Below are positions 8,575 to 62,500 of a stretch of 64,000 nt of DNA, piece by piece (position 1 is the first letter of the stretch; every line of letters begins with the position of its first letter). Below the pieces are notes generated by a model. That model worked only from the letters and a program-made list of their open reading frames with translations, did no database searches and was not told where the DNA came from. Made by a program: the position numbers and the translations under genes. The stretch is taken from positions 160,001-224,000 of the forward strand of contig OZ223514.1 in assembly GCA_965140785.1 (NCBI GenBank), read 5' to 3'. The DNA is from an uncultured Ruficoccus sp. (GTDB lineage Bacteria > Verrucomicrobiota > Verrucomicrobiia > Opitutales > Cerasicoccaceae).

Positions 8575-9690
8575 ATGCCAGCGAAACCTTCAGCCAAGTT
8601 AAAATCCGTGTATGGGGCGCTCCTCAAGCGCATCAAGGATGAGGACTGGAAAGTCGGCGAACTGCTCGCCCCTGCCAGTGAATTGGCCAAGGAGTATGAT
8701 TGCAGCATCGGTATGATGAGCAAAGCGCTCGCCATGCTGGCCCATGAAGGGCTGGTGGAGCAGCGCCCCCGGGTGGGGACCCGCATCATTGGCACGCCCG
8801 GTCAGGCCGGCGAGCAGAGCGGCAAGTCCCTGAAGCTGGATGCCTTCGCCTTTATCCACCCCAGCGAGCTGCATGAAGGGGGCTGGAAGATGCTGACGGC
8901 TTTTCAAAAAGCGGCCACACGCGTCGGAAGACGGACGGTAGTTTTGAGCACGGGCGCGGATTTTCAAAAGGAAATGGAAATGCTCCGGCGGCTCGACGAA
9001 TTTGACGTGCAGGCGGCGGCGATTTTTCCATTCCTGGTCACTCCGGCGGATCACATTCAGTTTTCGCAACTGATCGTCGCGGTGAATTATCCGATCGTTC
9101 TCATTGACCATTGCCCGGCCGGAGTCGAGTGCCTGTCGGTGCATATGGACTGCTTTCACGCCGGGTACACGATGACCCGTCGTCTGCTCGATCAGGGCGC
9201 ACGTCGCATCGGTTTTCTGACCAATAACGGCCTGCGCCTGTCGGGGCGCAATCGCTATCAGGGCTTTCTGTGGGCGATGCAGGAGGCCGGGGTCGAACCT
9301 GTGGACGACTTGCTCCTGGTGGAGTCCACCAGCCATCCCAATTTCGAAGATCCGTTCGCGGAGCCGACCCGGGTGGGCGAGTGCTATATGCAGCAAACGA
9401 AGGGAAAAGGCGTCGAGGCCGTGGTTTGCTCCAATGACGTGATGGCAATCGGCTTGATGCGGGCGGCCCGTGAGGCGGGCGTGTCGGTGCCGGGTGATTT
9501 GAAAATTATCGGAACGGACAACCTGGGCATTTCCGCGAGCGAAGAATTTTCACTGACTTCCTATGATCCGCCTTATGCGAAGCTGGGCGAGCAAACCTTT
9601 GACCTGCTCAACGCCGTCGTCGAGGGCAAGCCGGCTCCGCGCAGAGAATACAGTCTGCGCGGTGAGCTGATCGTACGCTCAAGCGCCTGA
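8575..9690 (+). CDS. GntR-HTH / LacI-type sensor hybrid regulator (AraR-like)
   Basis: GntR wHTH (ELAKEYDCS...LAHEGLVEQRPRVGT) fused to a periplasmic-binding-protein-like domain (NDVMAIG...VPGDLKIIGTD...GELIVRSS). Confidence 0.9.
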   Translation: MPAKPSAKLKSVYGALLKRIKDEDWKVGELLAPASELAKEYDCSIGMMSKALAMLAHEGLVEQRPRVGTRIIGTPGQAGEQSGKSLKLDAFAFIHPSELHEGGWKMLTAFQKAATRVGRRTVVLSTGADFQKEMEMLRRLDEFDVQAAAIFPFLVTPADHIQFSQLIVAVNYPIVLIDHCPAGVECLSVHMDCFHAGYTMTRRLLDQGARRIGFLTNNGLRLSGRNRYQGFLWAMQEAGVEPVDDLLLVESTSHPNFEDPFAEPTRVGECYMQQTKGKGVEAVVCSNDVMAIGLMRAAREAGVSVPGDLKIIGTDNLGISASEEFSLTSYDPPYAKLGEQTFDLLNAVVEGKPAPRREYSLRGELIVRSSA

Positions 9691-9810
9691 CGTCAGATTG
9701 AAGGGGCTCTGTCAGGTGCCTGGCCTATGGCCAGACAGTGGGTGTGGCTATTGTTTTTTACACTATTATTACACATTTTATAATAAAATATATTTTAACA
9801 AGTATGTCCC

Positions 9811-11985
9811 ATGAATGTTAGGGTGGAAATGAAGGAGCCGGTAAAGGCGTCGTCCGCGTGGATCTGGTTCCCGGGTGATGGCGCTTTCGGCATCCTGCGA
9901 AAAAAACTCGCTCGTCCCAGGGACGGGGGGAACTTGACCCTGCAGTGCGCGGCCTTTGACCGCTACGAACTTTACCTTGACGGGCGGTTAGCCCTTGAGG
10001 GCTCCTTGCCGGGCGACCTGCCACGCTGGATTCCCATCGACGCCGTATCGATTTCATTGTCACCTTCGGACCAGCCCTTGCTCGTCGAGGTGCTCGTTTA
10101 TCACAGCCGTTTGGAACGCATACACTATCGCGGAGAGAGTCGGCCCGGATTCTGGGCTATGCTGACGCTCGACGGTGATCAGTACACGACGGATTCGACC
10201 TGGCAGGCAGCCGGTCTGGAGGCATGGAAAAGGGCCGCTCCGCGGATGAATCACGTGCTCGACCCTCTGGAGGATGTGGATATCACCGGAGCGCAGTGGC
10301 GCTGGCGCGAGCAGGGTTGCGTTCTGGATATTGACGATGACTTCAGTTGGCAGGACGCGCAGGTCGTGGATTTACCCGATCCGCTTCGGTCAGAGGTCGG
10401 GTGGGAGCACAAAGCGGGATTTGTGAGCCGCTCCCTGTGTCCGGCGCGGCATTACTGGCTCGGCTGGGCAGGGGAAGATGCGGTGCCGGCTTTTACGGCG
10501 ACAGCCCAGGCGAATGCAGGCGGGGCGCTCGATCCGTCCCCGCAAACAGGTCCCCTCTGCGAGCGCGTCATCGACCCTTTCCGGCACGATCTCTGTGTGG
10601 TGGATTTTGGCGAAGCCGTTACCGGGATGCCGTGCGTGGAAATCGATACGCCGGTCTCCCTGATGGTTGAGCTGGGGTGGGCCGAGCGGCTCTCCTCTGA
10701 AGGGTTGCCTGTCATTTACGGCAAGGGGACGCTCTACCAGGCCCGCTATCGCGTGCCGCCCGGTCGCCACGAGCTCAAGCCTTTTCACTGGAGCGGATTC
10801 CGTTACCTGCGTGTGGGGATCGAAGCGCAGCCCGAGGGGACGGCAAGCATACGGCTGTCGGCCTGTGCCATTCGCCGCGCACTCAGTCTCCCTGCGGTGA
10901 GACCGACTCACTCCGGAGGCACAGCAGTGGCGAAGATCGAGGTTCTGTGCCGGACAACCCTGGAGAAAACCCTGCCCGAGTATCCGGCGGACTGCCCGAC
11001 CCGGGAAAAGGCTCACTACTGGACGGACGGTCTTTTTATCAGCCTGGCCCTGGAGCGAATATACGGGGAGGCGGTCTTTGCGGATTGGTATTGTGAGGCC
11101 TTTCGCCGGGTGCCCATGCAGGTCGGAGGCCTCTTCAGCTCCGTCTATCCGGGCGATCACCGGGTGTTGGTGGACGCGTGCCTGGCGCCGGTGATCGGCT
11201 GGCGTTACCGGCGTGCGCTTCGGGGGGAATTTACGGTGGACACCGGGCTTTGGGCGAAGGCTCTTCGGGTCAACGCATGGTATGAGAAGCATGTCAGTGG
11301 TAGTGGACTGCTCGAAGTGCCGGGCTGGGAACCGGATGCCGGTGAGCTGGTCTTTCTGGATCATCCTGGCTTGCCCTGGCACCACTTCGCGCACCCCTCG
11401 CTGGACCGGCGCAATCCCAGTGCGGCGCTCAATCTTTATTACCTGGCCTTCCTCCAGTCTCTCCTGCAGGCTGCGGCGGAGAGGGACGGGGAGTTGGAGG
11501 AAGTGCTTGCCGATCGGACGGCTGCACTTTCACAGGCGATCCGGGAAACTTTCTGGGACGGGGCTGTGCTGCGGGACAGCGACTTCCGGCGCTATCCGGA
11601 CGCGGGCGTGTCCTGGCTGGCCAACTCCTTGGGCGTGGTTGGCGGCGTGCTGCGCGGCGAGGAGGCGGTGAACGCGATGCGGACCATGATGGAAAGCTAT
11701 GACACGGTGTGCCGCTGTACGCCCGGGACGATTTTCTGGTTTCTCCAGGCCGCCAGCCTGACGAAGCTTTTTGGCGAAACCGAGCAGATACTGGGTCGGC
11801 TTTTTGGAAAAATGCTCAAGGCGCAGGCGACGGCAACCTGGGAAACTTTCGACGGCGAGTTGGAGGACAGCTTGTGCCATCCCTGGCTGGCGGCGCCGGT
11901 GGCCATGTATCTGGCTGATCCGGAGGGGTTCGGCTGTTCTCCACCCCTGTTGGCCTGTGTGGCGTCGAAGGGCAGGACTGGATAG
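9811..11985 (+). CDS. GH78-like alpha-L-rhamnosidase family protein
   Basis: VDFG, GFRYL, DCPTREK, ATATWE, SLCHPW motifs; no signal peptide evident. Confidence 0.78.
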   Translation: MNVRVEMKEPVKASSAWIWFPGDGAFGILRKKLARPRDGGNLTLQCAAFDRYELYLDGRLALEGSLPGDLPRWIPIDAVSISLSPSDQPLLVEVLVYHSRLERIHYRGESRPGFWAMLTLDGDQYTTDSTWQAAGLEAWKRAAPRMNHVLDPLEDVDITGAQWRWREQGCVLDIDDDFSWQDAQVVDLPDPLRSEVGWEHKAGFVSRSLCPARHYWLGWAGEDAVPAFTATAQANAGGALDPSPQTGPLCERVIDPFRHDLCVVDFGEAVTGMPCVEIDTPVSLMVELGWAERLSSEGLPVIYGKGTLYQARYRVPPGRHELKPFHWSGFRYLRVGIEAQPEGTASIRLSACAIRRALSLPAVRPTHSGGTAVAKIEVLCRTTLEKTLPEYPADCPTREKAHYWTDGLFISLALERIYGEAVFADWYCEAFRRVPMQVGGLFSSVYPGDHRVLVDACLAPVIGWRYRRALRGEFTVDTGLWAKALRVNAWYEKHVSGSGLLEVPGWEPDAGELVFLDHPGLPWHHFAHPSLDRRNPSAALNLYYLAFLQSLLQAAAERDGELEEVLADRTAALSQAIRETFWDGAVLRDSDFRRYPDAGVSWLANSLGVVGGVLRGEEAVNAMRTMMESYDTVCRCTPGTIFWFLQAASLTKLFGETEQILGRLFGKMLKAQATATWETFDGELEDSLCHPWLAAPVAMYLADPEGFGCSPPLLACVASKGRTG

Positions 11986-13145: not shown

Positions 13146-15293
13146 ATGCATGAAGCACTCTTTAGAAAGCACCATTCTGTGAACACGAAAAACGTTCGTC
13201 TTTCTGCCCTGGCCGGCCTGCTCGTCTGTGGTCTTGCCTCCTCTTCTCTGCTTGGAGAAGAAACGATGCCGGAGGTGGAGACCGCTTGCATTGTGGTAAA
13301 AGCCTCGGAGACATTGGGACCGGTTAACACCCGGATCTTCGGGCATAATCTCTCGGCCGGGGATGGCGCGGGTATCTTCCCCTCCGGCACTCAGGAGCGG
13401 ACCATCATGACCGCGGATGGGCTTTGGGATCCTGGGACAGGAAAGGCCGTGCCGAAGATGGCCGAGCTGGCCGAGGAGGTGGGGATATCCATGATGCGCT
13501 ATCCGGGCGGATGCCTGGCGCACAACTACGACTGGAGGGAAACGGTCGGTCCGGTGGAGCAGCGCGGGCATGATAACTGGAGGTTTGGGTTGGATGAATA
13601 CCTGGCTTTCTGCGAGGAGCTGGGGGTGGAGCCGGTTATCACCGTCAGCGATTACGTGCTCCCGGCGGAGGAGATGCCGCAGCATGCGGCAGAGCTGGTG
13701 GAGTACCTGAACGCGCCCGCCACGCCCGAGCATCCCTGGGCCATGCGCCGCAAGGAGTGGGGACACCCGGAGCCCTACGGTGTGGGTTGGTTCGAACTCG
13801 GCAACGAGTCCGAGCACGGCAACCATGACGTGAGCCCGCACCGCGTTTACACCCCCGAGCAGTACGCGGACTATGCCGTCAACACGGCCCGCGCGATGAA
13901 AGCCGTGGACCCCTCGATCAAGGTCGGCGTGGTGATGGTGCCCGGTGCCGGCCAGGACGTTTACTGCGATTGGAATGAAACGGTCGCCCGGATCGCGGGG
14001 CCGGTGGCGGATTTTGTCGTCGTCCACATTTACACGCCCAAGGTCGTCAAGGATGTGCCGATCTCTCCGCGTCAGGAGGTTGACCTCATCGAAGCGATGA
14101 TGGGGGCACCCGAGCAGATCGACTACCACCTCAAGGATTACCGCCGAATGATCGAGGAGCAGTGCGGGCGCGCACTGCCGCTGGCCGTGACGGAGTTTAA
14201 CATCGGCGCGGTCACCAACGTCCCCCGTCCTTACCGTTTTACCTACGGCGCCGCGCTCGAGTGCGCGGACCTGATGCGGGTCTTTCTCCGGCCCGAGAAC
14301 GGCGTGATCATGGCGCAATACTGGCAACTGGCCAATGGCTACTGGGGCATGCTCGACTCGACCGGCCCGCTGGCGGATCCCACCATTGCGGAGCGGCCGG
14401 CTTTTCCGGTGTTCCGGCTATTTACCCGTCACGTGGGAGAGACACTGGTGGAGACGGAGGTAGATGCCCCGCTCAAGTCTTCCGCCGGATACCTGGGAGT
14501 CTACCCCGCCGATGCCGATGAGCATGAGCCGGGTGGGGAAGTGCTGGCCGTGATCGACAGCGATGAAATTCTCCAGCAGGTGTCCCTGAATAAATTCCCG
14601 GGAGAGGAAGTTTCGGCCAGCTTGGAGGACGGGACGCTGACGGTGACCATCGACGGCCTCTCAAAGAGCCGTTACCCGGCCTTTGCCGTGATCGATCGTC
14701 CCGCCGGGATTGAGGGACCATGTGACTACCGCTTCAGCTACGAGGCGCGTTTCATCGGGGAACCGGATAAGCCGACGCCCCCGGCGACGGTGGGGCTCAT
14801 GGACAAGCGCGGTTACGACCAGACCGGCTCAGCGTTGCGGATCAGCGGAGGGACGGCGCATGAGTGGACCGAGTACAGCGGTATTTTCAATGCTCTGGTC
14901 GATGCCCCGGGGGTAACCCTGCTGACCCGCCTGGAAGGGGGGGGCGGTCTGACCGGGACCCTGCAAATCCGTAATATGCGGCTCGAAGTCCTCAGTAAGG
15001 AGCGCTTCACGGAGTACCCGCTGCTGACGGCCATGGCCACCCTTTCCGGAGACGGCGAGACGGCCACCCTGATCGTCATCAACAAAAGCGAGACGCAGGC
15101 TATCCAGACGGATATTTTGTTGGATGGTTTCGAGGCGACAAGTGCCCGGCTGTGGCAAGTCAATGCTCCCGACCTGCTGGCGCAAACCGGTGTCTCCCAA
15201 ACCCAGACTGCCGTGCCGCTGGCTCTGGACCAGGGCGATGTCACCTACGTTTTTCCCGCTCACTCCATCACTGCTATCGAATTTCTGCGATGA
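13146..15293 (+). CDS. GH51-like alpha-L-arabinofuranosidase family protein, secreted
   Basis: MRYPGG, FGLDEY, HPEPYGVGWFELGNE (acid/base), VTEFN (nucleophile), C-terminal FPAHSITAIEF. The true start may be slightly downstream. Confidence 0.85.
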   Translation: MHEALFRKHHSVNTKNVRLSALAGLLVCGLASSSLLGEETMPEVETACIVVKASETLGPVNTRIFGHNLSAGDGAGIFPSGTQERTIMTADGLWDPGTGKAVPKMAELAEEVGISMMRYPGGCLAHNYDWRETVGPVEQRGHDNWRFGLDEYLAFCEELGVEPVITVSDYVLPAEEMPQHAAELVEYLNAPATPEHPWAMRRKEWGHPEPYGVGWFELGNESEHGNHDVSPHRVYTPEQYADYAVNTARAMKAVDPSIKVGVVMVPGAGQDVYCDWNETVARIAGPVADFVVVHIYTPKVVKDVPISPRQEVDLIEAMMGAPEQIDYHLKDYRRMIEEQCGRALPLAVTEFNIGAVTNVPRPYRFTYGAALECADLMRVFLRPENGVIMAQYWQLANGYWGMLDSTGPLADPTIAERPAFPVFRLFTRHVGETLVETEVDAPLKSSAGYLGVYPADADEHEPGGEVLAVIDSDEILQQVSLNKFPGEEVSASLEDGTLTVTIDGLSKSRYPAFAVIDRPAGIEGPCDYRFSYEARFIGEPDKPTPPATVGLMDKRGYDQTGSALRISGGTAHEWTEYSGIFNALVDAPGVTLLTRLEGGGGLTGTLQIRNMRLEVLSKERFTEYPLLTAMATLSGDGETATLIVINKSETQAIQTDILLDGFEATSARLWQVNAPDLLAQTGVSQTQTAVPLALDQGDVTYVFPAHSITAIEFLR

Positions 15294-25522: not shown

Positions 25523-26254
25523 TTACAGTTGGGCGGGAGCCTCGCTGACAGGTGCTTCCATGATCCTCATATCAGCGCCTTTGAGCTTGGTGGGGTGAGG
25601 CGCGATAAACAGGTACAGGCGGGAGCCGGGTTGCATTCGGATATTTCTCTGGATGAGGGGTATCGCTCTGTTGCTGTCATCGTCTCTTGCTACCGCCATT
25701 AGGTTGACCCCTCGATTTATTTGCTCCGTTACTCGTATCAATTTAGTGCCATAAGCGGGCAGGCTGATCTGCTCATTCCCGATTTTCAGGTAAAGCGTCT
25801 TCGCGAATAAATTAACAATATACAGGCTCTGTGGCGGGAAGGCGCTCAGGCTGTTGTCAAACGCCCAGCCCTTAAACCGGATGGGCGTCACCGACAGGTC
25901 GGGAAAGAGCAGGATCGCCGTATCCGGCACCTGGGGGTTGAGCTTGATCGTGGCCGCCGGCGTGGGAGGAGCTTCGGGATTGGGCGGCTGAAGGTAGAGG
26001 GCCAGGTCTTCGGGACCGGCATAGGTGGTGGTTCGGCCGAAGTCTCCGAAGGGGGCTATCGCCTTGGTGACTTGCTCCTGCTTGAGATAGTAGAGGTCTA
26101 TGCCCGCCTTTTCGCCCTCATTCATGATGGGGCGCAGGTTCACCCCGTCGTACCAGACCGCCAGGCTGAGCCGTGTGTGGATGGCCGGAGGCTCCTGGGC
26201 GCTCAGGCTCACGGTAGCCAGCGCGATCAGCAGGTGGGGAAAAAAGTTTTTCAT
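25523..26254 (-). CDS. Hypothetical secreted protein, partner of the PilX/GspK-like gene
   Basis: Signal peptide MKNFFPHLLIALATVSLSA; starts 23 nt after the large pilin-like gene on the same strand. Confidence 0.75.
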   Translation of the reverse strand: MKNFFPHLLIALATVSLSAQEPPAIHTRLSLAVWYDGVNLRPIMNEGEKAGIDLYYLKQEQVTKAIAPFGDFGRTTTYAGPEDLALYLQPPNPEAPPTPAATIKLNPQVPDTAILLFPDLSVTPIRFKGWAFDNSLSAFPPQSLYIVNLFAKTLYLKIGNEQISLPAYGTKLIRVTEQINRGVNLMAVARDDDSNRAIPLIQRNIRMQPGSRLYLFIAPHPTKLKGADMRIMEAPVSEAPAQL

Positions 26255-43547: not shown

Positions 43548-43578
43548 GCGGGACGGTAACTCCGTAGCTTTCAAAATA

Positions 43579-44843: not shown

Positions 44844-46415
44844 ATGCAGTTTACCGTGCATGCCCAGGAGACAGACCGGCCAAACCGGGGATTTTGGCGG
44901 GCGATTGGCTACGATTTTATGTTCAAGCTGACCCATGAGCCGGAGGGGCAGTACCTGCTGGACAGGGCGCGCAAGCACGGGACTATCCAGTACATCCGTT
45001 CGCATTTCACTTTCAACAACCAGGACGCGACAGCGGACAAAAAGGCCGGGGGAAATGTCTGTGGGCAGGTGATGAGCTTCGGCACGGACGGGACCGTCAG
45101 CTATGACTTCAGCCGGGTCAACCGGACCTTTCAGGAATATGTCAAGCGCGGCATGAAGCCGATCGTCGAGTTCGACTTTTTCCCGGACGGCATGTGCTAC
45201 GACGAGCAGGAGGCCGCCAATGACGAGGGCTTCAGCATTAAAAGCGGACTCATCAAGGACTGGGGACTGTGGCGGCAGTTGCTGGAGCGTTTCATGCAGA
45301 ATCTCGAAGCAACCTTTGGCAAGGAGGAGCTGCGGACCTGGTACTTCGAGGTCTGGAACGAGCCGGACGTGTGGGAAGGGGAGCATCAGCAGCAACTTTT
45401 TCATCTCTACGATGTCTTTGCCGATGTCGTTAAATCCCATGACAGCGGCTATCGTATCGGCGGACCCGCCTGCTATAATTTCTATGCGCTCAAGGATTTT
45501 CTCGACCATATCACTCAGGGCGTGAATTTCGTCACGGGCGAGGTCGGCAGTCCCATCGATTTCATCTCCCATCACATTTACGGGGTCTCCGGCAACTGGC
45601 TGGCTCAGGGGCCCGAGATCGTTCCCCAGGTAAATCGCTTTTCCTCGGAAGTGCTTTGGTGGTATCGCTTGTTGAGGCGCTATCCTTCGCTCAGCCACGT
45701 CGAGCATCACCTCAATGAGTGGGGCGTTTGTTCCCATGGGGATACGAAGTTTGTCGATCAGTTCCCGCAGCTCGAATACCGCAACAGCGAATATTCGGCC
45801 CTGTTCCTGGTCAAGCTGGTGGACTGTCTCAAAAGCATCGAAGAGGCTTACGGATTTCGCACCGATCTGCTGCTTTACTGGGGCGCGTGTTGGAATGCCG
45901 GCATCCCCAATATGTTTCTGGGGTCGCGCGACCTGACCACCACCGGCAATGTGCCCAAGCCTATCCTGACCGGCTGGGAAATGCTGAGCAGGTTGGGAGA
46001 GGACTTCCTGAAGGTTGACGGCCCCCGGTGCGGGGGGCGGCTGGGGCTGCTCGCCGCCGCGAACGCCCAGGGCTGCCAGCTGCTGGCCTATAATTTCAAC
46101 GAAACCGATGACGACCCTGGGCGGGAAGATGATGTAACGATCGAGCTTGATCAGCTCAAAGCGGGCCGCAGCTACGAGGTTCGGGAAACCCGTTTGGACA
46201 AGGATCATCACAATACTTACCGGCAGTGGCAGCGTCTCGGTTCCGAGGTGAACCCCGGCCGCGAGCTTCTTGCTACCTTGATGCGTACCGCGGAGCTGGA
46301 CGCCGACGCAGTCCTGAGCGCCAACTCCGATGAAAGCGGGCGCCTGAAGCTGAGCCGGGGTATTCCCCGGCATGGCCTGTTACTGCTGGAGATCAGTGAA
46401 CGCGTATCCGCCTGA
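44844..46415 (+). CDS. GH39 family glycoside hydrolase (beta-xylosidase-like), no signal peptide
   Basis: YDFSRVN, GMKPIVEFDFFP, WYFEVWNEPD, DFISHHIYG, LNEWG. Confidence 0.87.
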   Translation: MQFTVHAQETDRPNRGFWRAIGYDFMFKLTHEPEGQYLLDRARKHGTIQYIRSHFTFNNQDATADKKAGGNVCGQVMSFGTDGTVSYDFSRVNRTFQEYVKRGMKPIVEFDFFPDGMCYDEQEAANDEGFSIKSGLIKDWGLWRQLLERFMQNLEATFGKEELRTWYFEVWNEPDVWEGEHQQQLFHLYDVFADVVKSHDSGYRIGGPACYNFYALKDFLDHITQGVNFVTGEVGSPIDFISHHIYGVSGNWLAQGPEIVPQVNRFSSEVLWWYRLLRRYPSLSHVEHHLNEWGVCSHGDTKFVDQFPQLEYRNSEYSALFLVKLVDCLKSIEEAYGFRTDLLLYWGACWNAGIPNMFLGSRDLTTTGNVPKPILTGWEMLSRLGEDFLKVDGPRCGGRLGLLAAANAQGCQLLAYNFNETDDDPGREDDVTIELDQLKAGRSYEVRETRLDKDHHNTYRQWQRLGSEVNPGRELLATLMRTAELDADAVLSANSDESGRLKLSRGIPRHGLLLLEISERVSA

Positions 46416-46447: not shown

Positions 46448-47536
46448 ATGATAGACGCGACTCCCCCCACCGATAAATTCGAATTCCATAATGCGCATTT
46501 GTGGCCGCTGCCGGGAGGCAAATGGCAGTTGGCGCGTTATCCCTATGCGATACTGCACCAACTCAACGAGAAAGCGCCCGCCCGGGCCATGGATTCTTGC
46601 GGGATCGAGATACGCTTCACGACGCCGGCCCCCGAGTGCCGACTTACGCTCAGTTGCGAGAATCAGGATGGGGAGCTTTATATTTACCGGGGGGCGTTCC
46701 TCATCCGGACGCAAACTCTGAAAAAAGGTGTTCCCACGGTGGTAGAACTCCTGCCACCCGAAGCTATGGAGGAGGCTACGGATGAGGCGTTGGCGGTTGG
46801 AGGTTTTTCAAAAAACCTATACCGGCTATTGCTCGGGCGGGGCTGTTTTATTTTTCATCACTACGAAAGTTTCGGTTACGCGCTACGCCCCCCAGGGCCC
46901 GATGAGGGGCCTGCGATAAAATGGCTGGCCTACGGCTCGTCGATCACACACTCCAACCCGCTCGGATATCCCTATCATGCTGCGAGGCTGCTGCATTGGA
47001 ATGTTTATGGTAAAGGTCTTTCGGCGTCCTGCCATATCGATCAGGCGGCGGTCGATTATCTGGCCGCGTATGCGGCCCAGAAGCGGATGGATGTCATCAC
47101 GGCTGAACTGGGCGTGAACATGCGCAACCGCTATGGCGTGGATGAGTTCACCCGGCGGGCTTCCTACTTTATCCGGACGGTTCGCCAGGCCAATCCGTGC
47201 ACGCCCCTCGTGCTGATCACTGCCTTTACGAACAGCGGACACCATCCCCGCGACACTTCGGTGCAGCGTTTTGCCAATCAGCGTGCCTACGACGCTTCCC
47301 TTCGTCGGTTGCATCAGGAGGCGCAGGATCCGTACCTGCACCTGATTGAAGGGACTGAGCTGCTTCCGGATTTTTCCTTACTCAAGGCGGACGTCCTGCA
47401 CCCTTCACCCACCGGAGAGGCGCTGATGGGGTATTTGCTGGCCGACCGTCTTCGGTCTCTGCTTAAGCAAAATCGCCATGCGATGCCCCCTGAAACCTTC
47501 AGCCCCTCCGCGGCTTCAGCTGAGCCGCGATCATGA
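46448..47536 (+). CDS. SGNH/GDSL hydrolase (esterase)
   Basis: YGSSITH, ELGVN, DVLHP catalytic blocks. Confidence 0.87.
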   Translation: MIDATPPTDKFEFHNAHLWPLPGGKWQLARYPYAILHQLNEKAPARAMDSCGIEIRFTTPAPECRLTLSCENQDGELYIYRGAFLIRTQTLKKGVPTVVELLPPEAMEEATDEALAVGGFSKNLYRLLLGRGCFIFHHYESFGYALRPPGPDEGPAIKWLAYGSSITHSNPLGYPYHAARLLHWNVYGKGLSASCHIDQAAVDYLAAYAAQKRMDVITAELGVNMRNRYGVDEFTRRASYFIRTVRQANPCTPLVLITAFTNSGHHPRDTSVQRFANQRAYDASLRRLHQEAQDPYLHLIEGTELLPDFSLLKADVLHPSPTGEALMGYLLADRLRSLLKQNRHAMPPETFSPSAASAEPRS

Positions 47537-55327: not shown

Positions 55328-58126
55328 CTAACGTTTCAATATATCTTCGATTTCATTCTCAGGAAAATCGTCCCCCCCAGTCAGGAACACGCACTCTGCA
55401 CCCACGTACTCATTTTCATCTATAGGATTCCCATATATATCGGATGGGGAAAATTTCGCTAAACCTTCGATCGCCACACTGACTTTTTCGTCGGGATCTG
55501 GTTGCAGCACAGCTGCCCAACCAGTATCAGAAGCAAAGACCAGGGCCCTTAATCCCTCAGTCAACTGGACCTCCTGACTGAAAGGCTTGCCCTCGATTCG
55601 CCAGCTCAGGGCAGACAACGCGATAGCCGTAGGGTGCGGATAGCCATCCTCCGTGACGAGCAAACGGTACGGATAGCCGTTGTCGAAATGTCGACCCTGC
55701 TTATGCATTGAATAAAGAAACACTTTCTTCGCGCCCGCTGCCAATACGCCTGCAATATGCCGCACCAGGCGATCGGCCGCATAGCGGTCATCACCTTCGC
55801 CGGGGAGCGGCAAACTATGGTAATAAAACCCGGCACTGGTCATTTTCTGAATCGCATTTCCTTCGGTCATCCAGACTTGGCGTGGAAGCTGACCGTCCTG
55901 ATCACGTAGCGGGTCGATAGCAATGGCGAATCCGTTTTCCAAACTATCGCCGGAGTAGCCGGGGTGCTCGTAAACATATTGATGATAAGAGATGACATCC
56001 ACCGAACAGAGTGCGTTATCATCGAGCAACTGGAGCGTCCACTCGCTGCCAGCTATTTTACTTCCCGGCACCGCGTGATTTCCTCCGGTGGTGTTAAAGC
56101 CGACGATTGCCAGCCCTGGGTCAACGAGTTTTGCAGCGTCATAGGCCGTGCGCTGGAGACGCGCATAATCGCCTGCAGGATCATCGCCCATGACTGCGTG
56201 CGTTCGTCCGTCTTTGTCTCGGCGGAGGTCTTTTTTCCAGAACTCTGCCATCCAAGGTTCATTCCAGACTTCCCAATAACGAATACTATGTTGGTAGCGG
56301 CGTGTGACTTTATCTACATAGTTAGCAAACTCATCCAAGTTGTCCGGCTGATAATAGCGGTCGGTCCAGCTATGCGGTCCTACACGCTGAAGCGCAGATG
56401 CCCATCCCGGCGAGCTTCCCAGCTGCCCCAAGACCATGAGGTCATGGTCACGATAGCGCTGAATCGCGGCATCATTGAACTCCCATTGGCCGGGCTCGGG
56501 CTCCAGAAAGTACCACCCCACGTACTGGATACCGGCATCGTGTAGACGCACCCAGTTAATGCCAATCGCCTTGGCGACGTCCATCGCGCGGTTGGTGGAC
56601 ATCAGGTGTGAACCGAATGGAGAGTCAGGCGCATCCTGCCCCCAGAAGCGCGGCCGTGGAACGCGGCTGACAACCAACTCTTCATAAGGGCTGATGCGTT
56701 GGCCATCCGGAGCCTCGACCCATGCCTCAAAACGAAAATTACCGTAGGGTAAACCGGGAAATTCCGGAAGAGCCCACTCTCCATTGGGTTCCCCGTCTGA
56801 ACCGGGTAACTCAATGTCGGGCACAGCGAGTTGCTGGTCATATAGGTTGACCACTTTGGCGCGCAGGGATGAACCTTCTGGCAGTTCCCCAGTCACAGCC
56901 CAACGGGCCGCAGGAGTATCGGCGGGCTCATCGGAAAAGAGGATGCGGTTGCTCCGAGTGGCTGCTAATGCCACCTCAGCAGCGAACCCGGTCTCATACT
57001 CAGTCGCGTCTTCACCAGGGGCCACGCGAAGCGCATCGATCCAAAGCACACCTTCATTCTCCAGCATGAGGAATAAGCCCCCATCCGATGATCCAGGGAA
57101 AAAGGGAAGTCCTACACGCGTCCACTCTTCTCCCGATGCAGAAAACTCGCAGGAATTAAGCACCTCGGTATCGGAGCAAACAGACAGGCGCCCCTTTCCG
57201 TTGCCATAGACTGCCAGTGAAGCGACATGAGCTCCTGTGTCCAGGCAAGCAAAGGGCTCAGTCATGACACGTGAACTGATGCCCGCCTGCGCTTCGATAC
57301 GCAGGGGCGATACCCCGGATGGTCCCTTTTTAGTCGTATCGGTGGAAATGACAACCTCATCGCCATCCGAGAGGTTGCGATGCAGCATCCAGTGCGGGGG
57401 CAACCCAAGGGGGAAGCGTGTGGTGCGCAGGAGATTGGTTTTCAAGGGAGCAAGTGTTTTATGTTGCAAGGCTGACTCACACAGGGAGGCATCCGTTATT
57501 TCGGCAGAAAAGCTCATAATATCGATGGCCCCCGAGCCACTGGTGGACAACACCACCTGTATATCGCTTAGGGGAACTTCCGCCTGCCAGGACACGTTTC
57601 GCGTGGTCCAGCCAGAGCCCGGTTTCAGGTCGAATGTTTCCAGTGGCTTCGATGCGTCATCTTTTTTCTGAACAAGACTCAATACAACCGGCGTCAGACT
57701 TGGGCTGCGCAGTGTGATCTGTATTTTTAAAGAATCTCCCACTGCCAGTTCGCCAATATCGGTGGAAATAGCTGAAAACGCATCTTCTTCCAATGCGCCG
57801 GCTTCCCAATGCAGGACCGGAATTCCATCCATGATCATACGACTATACCGTGAGTGAGTCTCTTTCGGTTCGGAAGCCTCCGACCAACCGCCGGGCAGAC
57901 GACCTTTTCTTCCTTCCACCGGGTTCCATTTTGCCGCAGGGGCCTCCAAGTGCATCTGACTGACTGTACGCACCACCGCCTGCATAACTTCCCAGACTCC
58001 CCCATGGGGTTCCGGGGAATACGGTTCGATCGCAAGCGACGATCCGCTCAGTGCGCAGACTGAGATAAGCCAGCCGATCAGCGGGAACAACCGCCGCCAT
58101 GGCAGGGTGAGATTTGCAAATGTCAT
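55328..58126 (-). CDS. Secreted clan GH-A glycoside hydrolase (GH39/GH5-like) with N-terminal CBM-like domains
   Basis: Signal peptide; DSPFGSH; GINWVRLHD; YWEVWNEP; DVISYHQY; VWMTEG. Confidence 0.78.
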   Translation of the reverse strand: MTFANLTLPWRRLFPLIGWLISVCALSGSSLAIEPYSPEPHGGVWEVMQAVVRTVSQMHLEAPAAKWNPVEGRKGRLPGGWSEASEPKETHSRYSRMIMDGIPVLHWEAGALEEDAFSAISTDIGELAVGDSLKIQITLRSPSLTPVVLSLVQKKDDASKPLETFDLKPGSGWTTRNVSWQAEVPLSDIQVVLSTSGSGAIDIMSFSAEITDASLCESALQHKTLAPLKTNLLRTTRFPLGLPPHWMLHRNLSDGDEVVISTDTTKKGPSGVSPLRIEAQAGISSRVMTEPFACLDTGAHVASLAVYGNGKGRLSVCSDTEVLNSCEFSASGEEWTRVGLPFFPGSSDGGLFLMLENEGVLWIDALRVAPGEDATEYETGFAAEVALAATRSNRILFSDEPADTPAARWAVTGELPEGSSLRAKVVNLYDQQLAVPDIELPGSDGEPNGEWALPEFPGLPYGNFRFEAWVEAPDGQRISPYEELVVSRVPRPRFWGQDAPDSPFGSHLMSTNRAMDVAKAIGINWVRLHDAGIQYVGWYFLEPEPGQWEFNDAAIQRYRDHDLMVLGQLGSSPGWASALQRVGPHSWTDRYYQPDNLDEFANYVDKVTRRYQHSIRYWEVWNEPWMAEFWKKDLRRDKDGRTHAVMGDDPAGDYARLQRTAYDAAKLVDPGLAIVGFNTTGGNHAVPGSKIAGSEWTLQLLDDNALCSVDVISYHQYVYEHPGYSGDSLENGFAIAIDPLRDQDGQLPRQVWMTEGNAIQKMTSAGFYYHSLPLPGEGDDRYAADRLVRHIAGVLAAGAKKVFLYSMHKQGRHFDNGYPYRLLVTEDGYPHPTAIALSALSWRIEGKPFSQEVQLTEGLRALVFASDTGWAAVLQPDPDEKVSVAIEGLAKFSPSDIYGNPIDENEYVGAECVFLTGGDDFPENEIEDILKR

Positions 58127-58749
58127 TTCTCGAGTTTCAGGTCGAAATACTCAACCACAGGCTCATCACGCTTCTGTGCATAGCCTGACACGCCGACAAA
58201 GCGTGGGCGGATGTCGAAGGGCAAGTTCGCCAGTTCATAGGCATCCAGTACCAGTTTGTCATTGACGTGAAGGGTCAGGGTCTGGGCCTTCAGATCGATA
58301 TTAAGCAGAAACTTAGTCGGTCGATCAGCGGAATAATCCTTGATCTTGGCCAGCCTGATTTTCGTAACTTTCCCAGACTGGGGATCTGTATAGTGACATT
58401 CGAATTCGGCATTCCGGTTGAGCAACACGAAGACGCCACCGGGCCACAGGATATTGATTTTGCCGTCCGGCGGAGTACCTAATCCAATAGCCACCCACCC
58501 CTCGTCCTTACTGACAGGATGGTTAAACAGCCCCGCTTCAATCGTGATTCCCTGAGTGCCTTCAGGCACAGCGGCCCGAGCCAGAAAGTTCCCAGGGTCC
58601 AATACGCTGAACAACCCCTGACCTGATTCATGCGATAGATTTTTAAGGTTATTCAATTGCCAGCCCAGCGTCCCTGGACTGGCTGCTGCCGACACTGCGG
58701 ATACAATCGCAAATCCGCAAAACATGCATGTAGATTTAATAAAACCCAT
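58123..58749 (-). CDS. Hypothetical secreted beta-sandwich-like protein
   Basis: Signal peptide ending AAA; 4-nt overlap with the downstream GH gene. Confidence 0.7.
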   Translation of the reverse strand: MGFIKSTCMFCGFAIVSAVSAAASPGTLGWQLNNLKNLSHESGQGLFSVLDPGNFLARAAVPEGTQGITIEAGLFNHPVSKDEGWVAIGLGTPPDGKINILWPGGVFVLLNRNAEFECHYTDPQSGKVTKIRLAKIKDYSADRPTKFLLNIDLKAQTLTLHVNDKLVLDAYELANLPFDIRPRFVGVSGYAQKRDEPVVEYFDLKLEK

Positions 58750-58773
58750 GGCAATATCAACCCGGTTGCAAGG

Positions 58774-59499
58774 TTAGCGGTTCCGGCGGCGACGCAAGGC
58801 AAGCAATGCGCCAAGGCTAGCCAGCCCCAGTATCAGCGAACACGTGGAAACTTCCGGAATGGCCGAAACTGTACCATTCACGACATAATTGTCATAGTCG
58901 ATATAGATGTTGGTGCCACCAAAGGGATAGATGCGGAATTCCAATGTCGAAGTGATGCTGTCGAAGTCCAGGCCACTGAGATCCACGCTATAGGAAGTAT
59001 AATTCGGACGCTGGGAGCCAATGCTCGAGCTATCCGGCGTAACGGTCAAATCATTCGTAAATCCGTCAGCGCTGCTACGCACCTGGAAGCCACGCGTCGA
59101 ACCGCCAGCACGGGCCGCATCGAGGGTAAAGCTGTCGAGGTCCAGCTCCATATTCTCGTCCGGAGTGATGCTGAATCCGAAGTAGGAAGTCGGAGTAAAA
59201 GTGGTGACACCTTCCGGATTCACGAGCAGGAAGTTATCCGCGTAACCGACCGAAGATCCATTGCCAATGGAGATCGTAAGGTTACCGCTAAGGTCCGTCA
59301 CATGGCTGGCCGTCAGTCCGCCTGCTATTGTGCTCGGGGCATATTGTGAGCCCGTTTCATTATTGGTCGCCGATCCGTTGAAATCATAGCCGACAAGAAC
59401 AGCGGCCTGGGTGGTGAGGCAAGAAGCAACACATGCCAGGAAAGGAGCAAGCAGGAGCTTCGAGGTGCTACATACACGGGATATCCTATTGATTTTCAT
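58774..59499 (-). CDS. PEP-CTERM-type sorting domain protein
   Basis: Signal peptide ending TQA; C-terminus AIPEVST + transmembrane segment + RRRRNR. Confidence 0.9.
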   Translation of the reverse strand: MKINRISRVCSTSKLLLAPFLACVASCLTTQAAVLVGYDFNGSATNNETGSQYAPSTIAGGLTASHVTDLSGNLTISIGNGSSVGYADNFLLVNPEGVTTFTPTSYFGFSITPDENMELDLDSFTLDAARAGGSTRGFQVRSSADGFTNDLTVTPDSSSIGSQRPNYTSYSVDLSGLDFDSITSTLEFRIYPFGGTNIYIDYDNYVVNGTVSAIPEVSTCSLILGLASLGALLALRRRRNR

Positions 59500-59583
59500 A
59501 TCGATGTATTTTGGGTTATATTTGGGGTTAAAAGACAAAGGCCAGTAACGTTCTCCATGATTTCTACCCACGCTGGCGCATTG

Positions 59584-61383
59584 CTAGCGCACAGGCAAAG
59601 CGGTTGAATTTTCGGCAAAATGTTCCTCCACTTTAGAGAGAGAAGGCGTAACAGTCGGCGCAATATTTGCTCTCTCAGACTTGCGCATGCGCTTAAAGCA
59701 TTCGCGAACCCCCTGGTAAGCCTCTTTGGGGCGACGGTACTCGTCCAGCGTGCCCTTATTGTTAAATGTGCGCGGACGTCCGAGCGAACGACCGCCACTG
59801 TAAGTTCGCATATCTGAGAAGTGCCATAGCGCGATGCCACTGCATCTGGGATTGCCCAACACGAGTTCACACGCTCGCTGCAGATAACGGTTCTGATAGG
59901 TCTCGGAGAAAAAATCATTGTGAGTATCTCGCCAACCATACAGCGCTTCGGCTCCAATCTCCGAGATCATCACCGGCTTATCTTCAAATCCGGCTTGGTC
60001 GATGTGTTCAAAGATCTCGCGCAGTTGGGGTTGAATCAAATCCAACGGCTGTGCCGCCTGCTCACAAGCATACCAGCCCGGATAGGTATTGATGCTGATG
60101 AGATCGACCAAATCGTAATGGAGGTCCGTTAGCGCAAACATGGTGGCGTAGGTTACCAGACGCGTCGGATCCAGTTCTTTTAAAGCCCTCGTGGCTTCCT
60201 CAAAAGCGCGCCGAACATACGGCGCGTCACTGCCCGCTTCATTGAGGAAGCCCCAGATAATGACCGATGGGTGGTTCGAACTGGCGCGCACCATGTTACG
60301 CAGTGACTCAGCGTGATCCGCGTGCCATTTCTCACTGGAGAATGTTTTCTCCCGCTGCCCCCACCCAAGGTTTTCCTCCCATACCAAGAGCCCGAGCTCG
60401 TCACAAAGGTCCAGGAAGCGTTGATCCTGAGGATAATGCGATCCCCGGACGAAATTACACCCCAGGTCCTTCAGCATTTGAATATCCGCAAGCATTTGCA
60501 GGGGCGACGTGGCGGGCCCACCGGAAGGATGCCACTCATGCCGGTTGTAGCCGCGCAATATCAAGCGTTCACCGTTCAGCCAGAGGGCACCGTCGCGGGC
60601 TTCAACATGGCGAAGCCCAAAGCGTGTTTCGACTAAATCACCATCCGGCAAGGCGACACGCAAGCGGTGCAGGTGCGGCGTTTCCGGAGACCAAATTCGC
60701 GGCGAATCAACACGCAAGTCAATCACCGCGCAATTGCCTGTCAGCTTAACCGCCTGATACGTTCTCACCGGCTCTTCATCAACCTGGACGGACAAATCGA
60801 TTTGGCGTACAGGGCACTCCGCGAGCTGTACCTTTACCCTCAGCAAGCCCTCACGATAGCCTCCTTCGACCAACGTCTGGACATGGTCGATGAAAGCCCC
60901 CCGGGCTGGCAATAGCCGCATCGTCACCGGGCGGATGATTCCTCCATATTGGTAGAAATCGAAATACTCCTCGTGCATAGGCACGCGTTCGAAGTCGTAA
61001 CGGTTATCCACCAGCACCAGTAATTCACGATCCTGTGATTCTGACTCGGCAACATCTACTTCAAAAGGTGCATACCCACATGCATGCTCTTTTACGGCGA
61101 CACCATCGATGCATAGGCGGCACCACATGGAAACAGCCCCAAAAGTGATGCGCGCGCGCTGGCCCGAAGGTATGTAAAAGCGCCTCCGATAGACCGCCAG
61201 CCCACGCTGGCCCGCATGATCCGGAAGCGCGTCGAATGCCGATGGAACAAGTGTCTTGCCCCACTCGATGTTATCGCAAGGATCGAACGAGTCGGGATCA
61301 ATATTACCCAAAAACGCAAACTCCCACAGATCGTTCAACGGTATCTCCGGGGTAAAGCGCAAATTCGCAGGTGCGTTTTGCAT
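59584..61383 (-). CDS. GH2 glycoside hydrolase (beta-glucuronidase/galactosidase-like)
   Basis: YGGIIRPV, WSPETPHL, GYNRHE, RGSHYP, NHPSVIIWGFLNE, ISEIGA; ATG at 61383 preferred over 61419. Confidence 0.92.
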   Translation of the reverse strand: MQNAPANLRFTPEIPLNDLWEFAFLGNIDPDSFDPCDNIEWGKTLVPSAFDALPDHAGQRGLAVYRRRFYIPSGQRARITFGAVSMWCRLCIDGVAVKEHACGYAPFEVDVAESESQDRELLVLVDNRYDFERVPMHEEYFDFYQYGGIIRPVTMRLLPARGAFIDHVQTLVEGGYREGLLRVKVQLAECPVRQIDLSVQVDEEPVRTYQAVKLTGNCAVIDLRVDSPRIWSPETPHLHRLRVALPDGDLVETRFGLRHVEARDGALWLNGERLILRGYNRHEWHPSGGPATSPLQMLADIQMLKDLGCNFVRGSHYPQDQRFLDLCDELGLLVWEENLGWGQREKTFSSEKWHADHAESLRNMVRASSNHPSVIIWGFLNEAGSDAPYVRRAFEEATRALKELDPTRLVTYATMFALTDLHYDLVDLISINTYPGWYACEQAAQPLDLIQPQLREIFEHIDQAGFEDKPVMISEIGAEALYGWRDTHNDFFSETYQNRYLQRACELVLGNPRCSGIALWHFSDMRTYSGGRSLGRPRTFNNKGTLDEYRRPKEAYQGVRECFKRMRKSERANIAPTVTPSLSKVEEHFAENSTALPVR

Positions 61384-61453
61384 GTCGAATATATGACAGG
61401 TTTCGACTTGCTCTTGCAAATTTGCTCTTACTGTTCACGATTAGTAACCGGAC

Positions 61454-62500
61454 ATGCCAATTAATCAACGAGAGCTTGCAAAGCGGGCTGGCGTGAGCCA
61501 GACAACAGTCTCGCTCTGCCTCCGCTCCCATCCCTCAATCCCCAAAGGGACGCGGGAGCGGATACTCCGGATAGCACGTGAACTCGGCTACAAGCAGAAT
61601 CCGTTGGTAGCCAGCTTGATGAGCGAAATTCGTTCGAATCGCCATGTCTCCTCTCAAAGTTGCATTGCGCTGTTAGTGGATGCCGAAGATGAAAAAGAGT
61701 GGTTTTGCCATGAGCTGTTTCGGCAGCAGTATGAAGGCATGCGCGCCAGAGCCCTCGCTCTAGGATTTCGCACCGAAGTGTTCTATGCAGGACAAAAAGG
61801 AACGACCCTCCGCGCGATTGACCGTATCCTCCACACGCGCGGCATCCGGGGCCTCATTCTCGCAGGCTCCCGAAGAAGAGCTTACGATCTCTCACTTATC
61901 CGATGGGCCGATTACGTCTGCGCCACGATATCGTACACCTGGGATCAGCCGGCGGTGGATCGTGCCTCGGCCCACCACCGCCATAATGTGGATATCGTTT
62001 TTCAGAAATTATCGGAACTCGGCTACTGCCGGATTGGTGTTTCATTAAGCCCTCATGCCCGAAAGGCTTCCGACCGAAACTGGCTCAGCGGCGCCCTACT
62101 CTGGAACGAGCTTCAACCCAGTAAAAAGCGTATTCCGTTTTTCGTGGCCGAGCAAACGGAGCATAATACGGAAGCCTTTGGCCGATGGATAAAAAAATGG
62201 AAGCCAGACGCCATTGTCACACTGGATGGCTGGGAAAAGTTATGGCTACACAAACTCGGCTTGAGCACTCCTGACGATATCGGACTGGCATGTGTCAACC
62301 GCTCCACCGAAAGCCGGGTATCGGGCGTCTACGAAGACCATGATTTAATTGGTGCTGCCTGTATCGATCTTGTCTCCGCCAAATTGCAACATAATGATTT
62401 CGGGCTGCCAGAGCGCCCCCATCTCCTATTGATCGAAGGACGCTGGGGTGATGGGGAAACTCTTCACCATGAAAAGGGCTGCCTCAGCCCTACGACCTGA
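61454..62500 (+). CDS. LacI family transcriptional regulator
   Basis: NQRELAKRAGVSQTTVSLCLR...TRERILRIARELGY; divergent from the GH2 gene. Confidence 0.93.
   Translation: MPINQRELAKRAGVSQTTVSLCLRSHPSIPKGTRERILRIARELGYKQNPLVASLMSEIRSNRHVSSQSCIALLVDAEDEKEWFCHELFRQQYEGMRARALALGFRTEVFYAGQKGTTLRAIDRILHTRGIRGLILAGSRRRAYDLSLIRWADYVCATISYTWDQPAVDRASAHHRHNVDIVFQKLSELGYCRIGVSLSPHARKASDRNWLSGALLWNELQPSKKRIPFFVAEQTEHNTEAFGRWIKKWKPDAIVTLDGWEKLWLHKLGLSTPDDIGLACVNRSTESRVSGVYEDHDLIGAACIDLVSAKLQHNDFGLPERPHLLLIEGRWGDGETLHHEKGCLSPTT

Follow-up and report, generated by a model that had tools for sequence, protein, structure and literature searches.

Oriented PEP-CTERM/pilin-like gene pairs in sugar-regulated loci of an uncultured Ruficoccus: a possible capture cassette served by shared type IV filament machinery

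Three loci with a common gene plan

We analysed a stretch of 64,000 nucleotides (hereafter the window; C43:160001-224000) from the genome of an uncultured Ruficoccus sp. (G000; 4.36 Mb in 50 contigs, 90.85% complete). Three loci of the window, numbered 1 (8539-16112), 3 (37715-47536) and 4 (54590-62500), are built on one plan, which combines a secreted PEP-CTERM-like protein, a pilin-like protein of the H-X9-DG/DUF1559 family, a sugar regulator and carbohydrate-active enzymes (CAZymes). The gaps between their genes are short and operon-like (Table 1). The initial annotation counted four such loci; the plan holds for these three and does not extend to locus 2 (25523-37338), which has no H-X9-DG pilin and is described in the last section.

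Pfam and NCBIfam were searched with 41 of the 87 window open reading frames (ORFs) of at least 150 aa. Most of the gene names proposed earlier were borne out by these searches, including the regulators and the GH51-like (glycoside hydrolase, GH), PL10-like (polysaccharide lyase, PL), Gfo, GH39, SGNH and GH2 proteins. Among the 41 proteins we found no TonB-dependent receptor and no ABC, MFS or SSF sugar transporter; the sole transport operon encodes an RND efflux system. Because the GH78-like, GH39, SGNH (46448) and GH2 proteins have no signal peptide, loci 1, 3 and 4 must use importers encoded elsewhere.

Table 1. Genes of loci 1 to 4, in window coordinates (HTH, helix-turn-helix; HMM, hidden Markov model of the pilin family)
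Locus	Feature	Coordinates	Strand	Basis
1	Regulator, GntR-type HTH fused to LacI-type sugar-binding domain	8539..9690	+	Pfam GntR, Peripla_BP_3, Peripla_BP_1
1	Weakly GH78-like protein (alpha-L-rhamnosidase six-hairpin), no signal peptide	9811..11985	+	PF17389, E 1.2e-5, 25.2 bits (cut-off 24.5)
1	PEP-CTERM-like protein P0001	12280..13014	+	Sec signal, IPES, transmembrane helix and RRRK; TIGR02595 14.1 bits (cut-off 16)
1	GH51-like alpha-L-arabinofuranosidase, signal peptide	13146..15293	+	PF22848, PF06964, NF051901
1	H-X9-DG/DUF1559 pilin-like protein P0006	15384..16112	+	N_methyl, SBP_bac_10; family HMM 207.9 bits
2 (outside the cassette)	Secreted 243-aa protein, second gene of a two-gene unit	25523..26254	-	
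2 (outside the cassette)	GspK-like 1064-aa protein, first gene of the same unit	26278..29472	-	GFALI... N-terminus
2	SGNH, LamG and DUF1961 protein, signal peptide	29615..31768	+	Pfam/NCBIfam
2	Beta-helix protein, signal peptide	31758..34103	+	Pfam/NCBIfam
2	PL10-like protein, signal peptide	34134..36392	+	Pfam/NCBIfam
2	PEP-CTERM-like protein P0002, predicted ConA-like lectin fold	36535..37338	+	AF2 model, Foldseek
3	Regulator with two AraC-type HTH modules, divergent from the operon	37715..39430	-	HTH_18 twice, AraC_binding
3	PEP-CTERM-like protein P0003, start probably at 39753 (MMNHK..., signal peptide)	39540..40922	+	Translation
3	Pilin-like protein P0008, DWS replacing DGH	41032..41700	+	TIGR02532 25.8 bits, over cut-off; family HMM 187.7 bits
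3	Beta-helix lipoprotein-like protein	41733..43547	+	Pfam
3	Gfo/Idh/MocA oxidoreductase	43537..44763	+	Pfam
3	GH39, no signal peptide	44844..46415	+	Pfam
3	SGNH esterase, no signal peptide	46448..47536	+	Pfam
4	H-X9-DG pilin-like protein P0009, 45% identity to P0006	54590..55282	-	Family HMM 199.3 bits
4	Secreted 932-aa protein	55328..58126	-	No Pfam or NCBIfam match
4	Secreted 208-aa protein	58123..58749	-	No Pfam or NCBIfam family
4	PEP-CTERM-like protein P0004, start probably at 59499	58774..59571	-	Translation; NF038126 weak, E 0.006
4	GH2 (beta-glucuronidase-like), no signal peptide	59584..61419	-	Glyco_hydro_2_C/N, NF007538
4	LacI regulator, divergent from the operon	61454..62500	+	LacI, Peripla_BP_3

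All three pilin-like proteins begin with a class III signal (GFTLVELL in P0006, GFSLIELL in P0008 and AFTLIELL in P0009) followed by a hydrophobic helix, and with TIGR02532 they score above the cut-off of 16.3 bits (16.9 for P0006 and 20.3 for P0009; see Table 1 for P0008). They share a C-terminal H...DGH motif, modified in locus 3. With PF07596 (cut-off 23.3 bits) P0006 reaches 26.2 bits, no single stretch passing, and P0009 20.7; with TIGR04294 (cut-off 19) the two score 13.2 and 15.7, and P0008 matches neither model. Database relatives of P0006 number 1018 and are annotated as prepilin-type or H-X9-DG proteins with PF07963 and PF07596; its nearest named homologues are from Opitutaceae. We also built a family HMM from 35 H-X9-DG-type members of the genome, chosen by regular expression. 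The scores of 188-208 bits that it gives for the window proteins are no independent test, because P0006, P0008 and P0009 are among the 35.

The AlphaFold2 (AF2) model of P0006, made from a 78-row alignment, has a predicted local distance difference test score (pLDDT) of 88.6 and a predicted template modelling score (pTM) of 0.82, and places a long N-terminal helix on an alpha/beta domain. When the model was compared with 48161 chains by VIA-align, 23 of the 24 best rows were type IV pilins or pseudopilins, led by 6xxd_A (Z 5.8, root-mean-square deviation 3.8 over 120 aa) and including the major pseudopilins EpsG (Z 4.5) and PulG (Z 3.7). Foldseek gave no match at E ≤0.001, so the pilin fold comes from VIA-align. 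Thus, P0006 is predicted to have a type IV pilin fold. A periplasmic-binding-protein fold, which the Pfam name of DUF1559 ("SBP_bac_10") might suggest, was rejected, as no such chain appears among the best VIA-align rows. Residues C59, C127, H209, G221 and H222 of P0006 are near-invariant and D220 is invariant.

Each of the four PEP-CTERM-like proteins of the window, that of locus 2 included, has a Sec signal and ends in [IV]PE-x, a hydrophobic helix and RRR. Their motifs are PES, PES, PEA and PEV, compared with canonical PEP in 79 of the 100 proteins that a regular expression recognises genome-wide, and none of the four matches PF07589. They differ in how many relatives they have: P0001 has a single homologue, P0002 has 35 remote ones, and P0003 belongs to a five-member paralog group (blastp), one member of which, gene 978 on contig C10, matches the PATR autotransporter-repeat model.

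Since P0001 has only one homologue, P0002 was modelled in its place. The model (pLDDT 85.9) consists of a beta-sandwich followed by a C-terminal helix, and Foldseek matched it to concanavalin A (ConA)-like lectins, carbohydrate-binding modules (CBMs) and PL jelly rolls, the best match being 5mqr (E 2.5e-8), with Aly36B, the calreticulin lectin and the Emp47 carbohydrate recognition domain among the others. P0002, the sole window partner modelled, is thus predicted to have a ConA-like lectin/CBM fold; it may bind a ligand. Similar hints come from the 32 PEP-CTERM proteins encoded within three genes of a pilin in this genome. Ten of them match glycan-, lectin- or PATR-type Pfam models at E ≤0.01 (four Laminin_G_3, two CBM96, one Polysacc_lyase, one weak 3-keto-disaccharide hydrolase, one weak Lectin_like and one PATR); 13 of the 32, all four window proteins included, match no Pfam model at this threshold.

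The pair across the genome and in other species

To place the window loci in context, the whole genome was surveyed with a crude set of 3858 genes, called by a simple codon-usage caller with gap filling. Regular expressions marked 63 prepilin-type N-termini and the 100 PEP-CTERM-like C-termini, the latter pattern being crude, and the family HMM recognised 46 pilins at 80 bits or more. Twenty of the 46 adjoin a PEP-CTERM gene (2.4 expected), and 28 lie within two genes of one (4.6 expected); the maxima among 2000 random placements, a null that ignores regional clustering, were 9 and 12. The co-localisation that the initial annotation proposed to check against shuffled gene order is therefore strongly enriched in this genome.

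The arrangement is also oriented. A PEP-CTERM gene lies directly upstream on the same strand of 13 pilin genes, at distances of 3-190 nt, and directly downstream on the same strand of three. The PEP-CTERM partners are nearly all singletons (blastp, 1e-5), and the pilins form one family. The pair is a real, recurrent and oriented cassette, beyond what chance produces. PE-x variants such as those of the window are not significantly enriched near pilins relative to the canonical motif (10/21 versus 22/79, p 0.11).

We then tallied what else lies within three positions of a pilin gene. The 46 pilins fall into 44 regions, and 34 nine-gene windows placed at random served for comparison. Genes of <120 aa, pilin-family genes and PEP-CTERM genes were dropped, which left 216 neighbours and 199 controls. 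These were classed by hand at E 1e-7 and compared by Fisher tests; the CAZyme classes, taken from Pfam, are crude. Strict GH, PL and CBM families account for 37 neighbours and five controls. With sulfatases, SGNH, beta-helix, LamG and similar proteins added, the counts are 54/216 and 9/199 (odds ratio 7.0, p 2.5e-9), and at least one glycan-active enzyme occurs within three genes of 32 of the 46 pilins, compared with eight of the 34 control windows (p 9e-5). Sugar-type regulators are enriched as well (27 neighbours versus 4 controls, p 4.5e-5). The proposed association of the cassette with CAZymes is hence upheld.

The description of the module as transporter-less fared less well. It is right for the three window loci and for outer-membrane receptors, in that neither the 41 window proteins nor the 216 neighbours match TonB_dep_Rec or SusD in Pfam. 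As a trait of the module it fails: SSF, RhaT, MFS_2/MFS or ABC sugar importers lie within three genes of the pilin in 13 of the 44 regions (two of them only at E 1e-5), and sugar-type inner-membrane transporters show no depletion (14/216 versus 7/199, p 0.19).

Machinery that such pilins could share is encoded in the genome and outside the loci, as had been supposed. We found five matches to secretins, four to platform genes and one to prepilin peptidase, as well as seven T2SSE ATPases (four large, three of PilT size) and four over-cut-off matches to exosortase (EpsH, PF09721), which probably represent three genes. A complete cluster resembling a type II secretion system (T2SS) lies on contig C40. 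TonB-dependent receptors are represented by two PF00593 matches, both outside the window and the pilin neighbourhoods. The window has none of these secretin, ATPase, platform, prepilin peptidase, exosortase or TonB-receptor genes.

The cassette is not confined to glycan loci. At C13:32226-39702 (L014, L159) an H-X9-DG pilin gene (32226-33107) is followed by genes for a 454-aa secreted protein, a PEP-CTERM protein, HemS/ChuX, Peripla_BP_2, FecCD and an ABC ATPase. Other bacteria have a TonB-dependent haem receptor at this position, whereas here it is taken by the pilin and PEP-CTERM cassette. Among 120 other genomes of the order, 12 encode an orthologue of this pilin. In the 20-kb surroundings of these 12, the features that lie next to the pilin are the 454-aa gene (11 loci), a PEP-CTERM gene (10), the ABC importer (9) and HemS (5). 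Five of these relatives were checked for TonB receptors and have one to three matches each, none inside the haem locus.

A further locus, C48:356842-361972 (L042), has a Fur-family regulator divergent from an operon for a PEP-CTERM protein, a 470-aa protein and a 293-aa pilin, and may be an iron-regulated cassette. The C-terminus of its pilin (FGP..NGYWNP) resembles those of riboswitch-controlled pilins from other genomes.

Loci from other genomes (n = 80) were retrieved with two peptide patterns derived from the 22 closest pilins, so the sampling of subfamilies is biased; they come from Verrucomicrobiota, Lentisphaerota, Planctomycetota, Armatimonadota and others. In this set, 29 PEP-CTERM ORFs fall in the 1 kb upstream of the pilin on the same strand, in 19 of 74 loci, whereas the remaining 1-kb bins, up to 8 kb away, hold 0-4 each. 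When the search was relaxed to accept any C-terminal anchor, the only further loci were L080, L088 and L090, two of which are of Opitutaceae type. Pfam was then used to scan 112 ORFs from 15 pair-bearing loci. Glycan contexts were found in L085 (alginate lyase and GH5), L120 (GH28), L140 (GH94) and L156 (sulfatase), and loci of Chthoniobacterales type share a conserved cassette in which the pilin comes after one or two PEP-CTERM proteins.

For 14 of 17 outside loci scanned, a cobalamin riboswitch (Rfam, over the gathering score) lies directly upstream of the PEP-CTERM-pilin operon. The other three are L101, whose contig begins inside the first gene, L110 and the CAZyme locus L085. No BtuB was found among the scanned ORFs of the riboswitch-type loci, and three related loci (L103, L120 and L143) encode DUF4465 proteins. 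Proteins of this family, three from PVC bacteria (Planctomycetota, Verrucomicrobiota, Chlamydiota and relatives) among them, bind B12 according to the sections consulted of PMC13398666, a text in which the strings "pilin" and "PEP-CTERM" are absent. The Ruficoccus genome itself has no cobalamin riboswitch over the gathering score, with one match of 29.1 bits at C10:385505, and none was found in L014, L042 or L035.

Two side observations concern the genes around the riboswitch operons. A DUF6580 membrane protein, a candidate inner-membrane corrinoid transporter, is encoded divergently about 0.3-1 kb upstream of the riboswitch in L103, L134, L137, L143, L146 and L147 (six of the first eight scanned). 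Additionally, a prepilin peptidase gene (L146, 9281-10426) and a gene for a PilT-size ATPase (L100, 2318-3433) each lie within about 2.5 kb of such an operon.

A capture cassette and its alternatives

What recurs across these contexts is a binder and a private pilin: they, and not the enzymes, are the conserved core. With a probability that we put at roughly one half, the pair serves ligand-specific capture in an import-type direction and relies on type IV filament machinery that the cassettes share. We favour capture because the cargoes concerned usually need TonB receptors, because the operons are regulated by sugar regulators or a B12 riboswitch, and because the genome is nearly devoid of such receptors. 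The haem loci and the cobalamin riboswitches fit this role, as both concern cargo that normally needs a TonB-dependent receptor. We regard the versions associated with glycans, B12 and haem as variants of a single type of cassette.

The unit would be a two-gene specificity cassette inside substrate-regulated operons. Its exosortase-sorted PEP-CTERM protein would be displayed at the cell surface, where a beta-sandwich domain would bind the ligand of the locus. In this genome that ligand would mostly be a glycan, to judge by the LacI, AraC or GntR-hybrid regulators and the GH, PL, carbohydrate esterase (CE) and sulfatase genes, with haem in one conserved locus; in other Verrucomicrobiota and in Planctomycetota it would be cobalamin. 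The partner, a private protein of predicted type IV pilin fold from the H-X9-DG/DUF1559 family, would be cut by the single prepilin peptidase and loaded onto a shared secretin/ATPase/platform machine encoded elsewhere. Binder and pilin together would bring bulky cargo across the outer membrane, as SusC/SusD, BtuB or haem receptors do in other bacteria. The inner membrane would then be crossed through ordinary SSF, MFS or ABC importers, which are encoded locally in about 30% of regions but outside the locus in the case of the three window loci.

Several observations weigh against this proposal. Pairing is not obligatory: a PEP-CTERM gene is missing within two genes of 18 of the 46 pilins, and about 68 of the 100 PEP-CTERM genes have no pilin within three. 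For 14 pilin genes, no CAZyme could be recognised up to three genes away. In other species, no PEP-CTERM gene was seen in the flanks of the closest homologues of P0006 (L079-L084), the partner in L080, L088 and L090 is encoded downstream of the pilin, and the relaxed search found no C-terminally anchored partner in the Lentisphaerota and Armatimonadota loci. The PEP-CTERM signals of the window score below curated cut-offs (with TIGR02595, cut-off 16 bits, two of the proteins score 14.1 and 12.0 and the other two have no match). The structural matches to pilins are modest as well, with Foldseek E values of 0.1 or worse and VIA-align Z of at most 5.8. A complex prediction for the soluble parts of the pilin and the second PEP-CTERM protein of a riboswitch operon scored 0.01 against a mark of 0.32 and is uninformative either way.

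The alternative that we take most seriously, while holding it somewhat unlikely, reverses the direction. In this scheme the private pilin would be a locus-specific pseudopilin that adapts the T2SS to export or display the PEP-CTERM protein and the enzymes; the binder alone would capture, and small products would enter through porins. The resemblance of the P0006 model to EpsG and PulG suits such a role, as do the complete T2SS-like cluster on C40 and the signal peptides found on all locus 2 enzymes and on several enzymes of loci 1, 3 and 4. PEP-CTERM proteins need some route across the outer membrane in any case, and the Klebsiella pullulanase gene adjoins its secreton. However, the many PEP-CTERM genes that have no pilin nearby indicate that export needs no private pilin in general, known T2SS machines serve many cargoes with one set of pseudopilins, and the riboswitch and haem cassettes hold no enzymes to export and sit with importers.

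It is improbable, in our estimate, that the pilin-like protein is no filament subunit at all and acts instead as an inner-membrane-anchored periplasmic receptor, a scaffold, an exosortase-linked acceptor or chaperone, or a ligand-binding protein that feeds an importer. The Pfam name SBP_bac_10 points this way. So does the near-invariant Cys pair, which together with the H...DGH motif could form a metal or ligand site, and so do the inner-membrane importers that adjoin the pilin in haem and B12 loci and the lack of assembly genes in the loci. Yet the predicted fold is that of a type IV pilin, pilins fill nearly all of the 24 best VIA-align rows, with no periplasmic binding protein among them, and the class III signal is retained with Glu5, a hallmark of filament-forming subunits, in the 46 paralogs.

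Co-occurrence devoid of functional meaning, with two large and abundant paralogous families (46 and 100 members) sharing "glycan islands" with CAZymes, is already disfavoured and seems to us very improbable: regional clustering is ignored by the shuffle null and PEP-CTERM genes do occur in control windows such as L075, but the pairing is orientation-specific with operon-like intergenic gaps, piles up in the same orientation in unrelated species, and is maintained downstream of riboswitches and in haem loci lacking CAZymes.

The capture cassette proposed here resembles the SusC/SusD polysaccharide utilization loci of Bacteroidota, which are likewise substrate-regulated operons that join a surface glycan-binding protein to CAZymes and a regulator, with a private capture pair per substrate and many copies. 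Unlike them, the cassettes lack both a TonB-dependent transporter and SusD; their binder is an exosortase-sorted PEP-CTERM protein where that of Bacteroidota is a lipoprotein, and the second partner has a predicted type IV pilin fold. With type IV filament systems (the T2SS pseudopilins GspG, EpsG and PulG, type IV pili, competence pili) the pilins share the class III signal, the N-terminal helix, the predicted fold and machinery present in the genome. They differ in forming 46 paralogs scattered over catabolic operons away from assembly genes, in their larger size (about 210-300 aa) and in the conserved Cys pair and H...DGH motif. Competence pili import a polymer, DNA, by retraction.

The riboswitch versions recall the Btu relay of B. 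thetaiotaomicron, in which BtuJ1/BtuJ2 (DUF4465), BtuG and BtuH act with BtuB (PMC13398666, as far as the sections consulted describe it). Riboswitch control is common to both, as are B12-binding jelly-roll proteins (DUF4465) that are exposed, in the PVC case presumably, at the cell surface. In the PVC operons, however, the binder has a PEP-CTERM signal in place of a lipobox, an H-X9-DG pilin is present, and BtuB is absent from the ORFs scanned.

The idea that pili may fish for polysaccharides is not new. In Planctomycetes, gold-labelled dextran was seen bound to pili-like fibres that emerge from crateriform structures, and uptake by dedicated pilin-like proteins was proposed (the "fishing-rod"; Boedeker et al. 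2017, PMC5394234); a 2025 review restates the proposal (PMC12078418). The consulted portions of both name no genes, whereas the present analysis links a defined gene pair to particular substrates, and does so in Verrucomicrobiota too. The PE(P) motif, transmembrane helix, Arg cluster, many diverse copies and exosortase genes agree with the PEP-CTERM/exosortase system (Haft et al. 2006, PMC1569441). That system was tied to exopolysaccharide and floc formation and, in the parts of the article consulted, not to pilins or catabolic operons; the window copies, moreover, are PE-S/A/V variants. In Akkermansia, no membrane protein is more abundant than a PilQ secretin, and PEP-CTERM proteins vary with the carbon source (PMC4960237, from the sections consulted).

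We found no paper on the PEP-CTERM/H-X9-DG pilin pair, in a coverage that left out subscription-only papers and supplements, and the strings "pilin" and "PEP-CTERM" are absent from a Kiritimatiellia synteny preprint (10.64898/2026.10.06.756941) and a paper on fucoidan in Planctomycetota (PMC11685898). The present analysis contributes a genome-wide count with controls for a genome of Opitutaceae type, the correction concerning transporters, the haem locus and the unified view of the cassette.

The cassette bears on how bulky cargo crosses the outer membranes of PVC bacteria. These are major degraders of recalcitrant polysaccharides that take up whole polymers with very few TonB-dependent receptors and, to our knowledge, no SusC/SusD. 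DUF1559 is among their largest unexplained families, and this genome ties 46 H-X9-DG pilins and 100 PEP-CTERM proteins to defined substrates through regulators, riboswitches and neighbouring enzymes. A wider generalization, which we regard as unlikely in its full extent and offer tentatively, is that H-X9-DG/DUF1559 pilins and exosortase-sorted binders constitute a TonB-independent, type IV filament-powered outer-membrane import system for all the classical cargo classes of TonB receptors (complex glycans, cobalamin and haem), in which each operon would supply its own adaptor pair to a few shared secretin/PilT-type machines. If true, it would explain the "selfish" polysaccharide uptake of Planctomycetota and Verrucomicrobiota and the purpose of a pilin family with 46 copies. 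Haem and B12 contexts offer simpler read-outs than glycans.

Locus 2, GspK-like giants and surrounding genes

The enzymes of locus 2 are pectin-type and are followed by P0002. There is no H-X9-DG pilin within two genes of P0002, and the pilin of locus 3 is three genes away. The "GspK-like pilin" assigned to locus 2 by the initial annotation did not hold up: the real GspK-like match is the 1064-aa protein, a member of a different family with no link to H-X9-DG pilins. The 243-aa protein encoded after it was considered as a pilin and rejected, having a Sec signal and no family match. Since the 243-aa protein is no pilin and the 1064-aa protein is of a separate family, the window holds three instances of the plan, not four.

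In the 1064-aa protein, similarity to the models for GspK and Verru_Chthon cassette protein A is confined to the N-terminus and does not extend over the full length: TIGR02600 covers residues 20-77 only, at 22.3 bits against 332, and NF037980 (GspK) gives E 0.3. The genome encodes 14 paralogs of about 1030-1280 aa (e.g., C39:94229-98021 and C13:7267-11603), most of them followed by a gene for about 190-310 aa, and two of these smaller proteins resemble the 243-aa partner of the window. No H-X9-DG pilin gene occurs within three genes of any of the 14. As a second private pilin for PEP-CTERM proteins these giants are unsupported: a PEP-CTERM gene is found at most two genes away from three of the 14 (1.4 expected; the highest count in the shuffles was 6).

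For the 932-aa protein of locus 4, phmmer detected the paralogs g1283 and g1275, which adjoin other pilin genes; g1275 has a weak GH10 match.

Locus 1 is flanked (886-8433 and 16173-17318) by genes for an RraA-like aldolase, a short-chain dehydrogenase/reductase, an enolase-superfamily dehydratase, IclR, FAD oxidoreductases and the mannonate dehydratase UxuA. These sugar-acid catabolism genes are consistent with pectin or uronate use. Between loci 1 and 2 lies the complete RND efflux operon (17676-24120), TetR-regulated and composed of an outer-membrane factor, an adaptor and an AcrB-type pump. The interval between loci 3 and 4 (48258-51693) encodes a fusion of GNAT and carbon-nitrogen hydrolase domains and a 517-aa protein with weak radical-SAM matches, both of which appear unrelated to the cassettes.

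The codon-usage caller overlooked two genes of the locus 4 region. Locus 4 and its surroundings (52000-64000) have a G+C content of 0.52-0.54, lower than in most of the window (0.58-0.64 over the first 36 kb), and this region may have been acquired horizontally.

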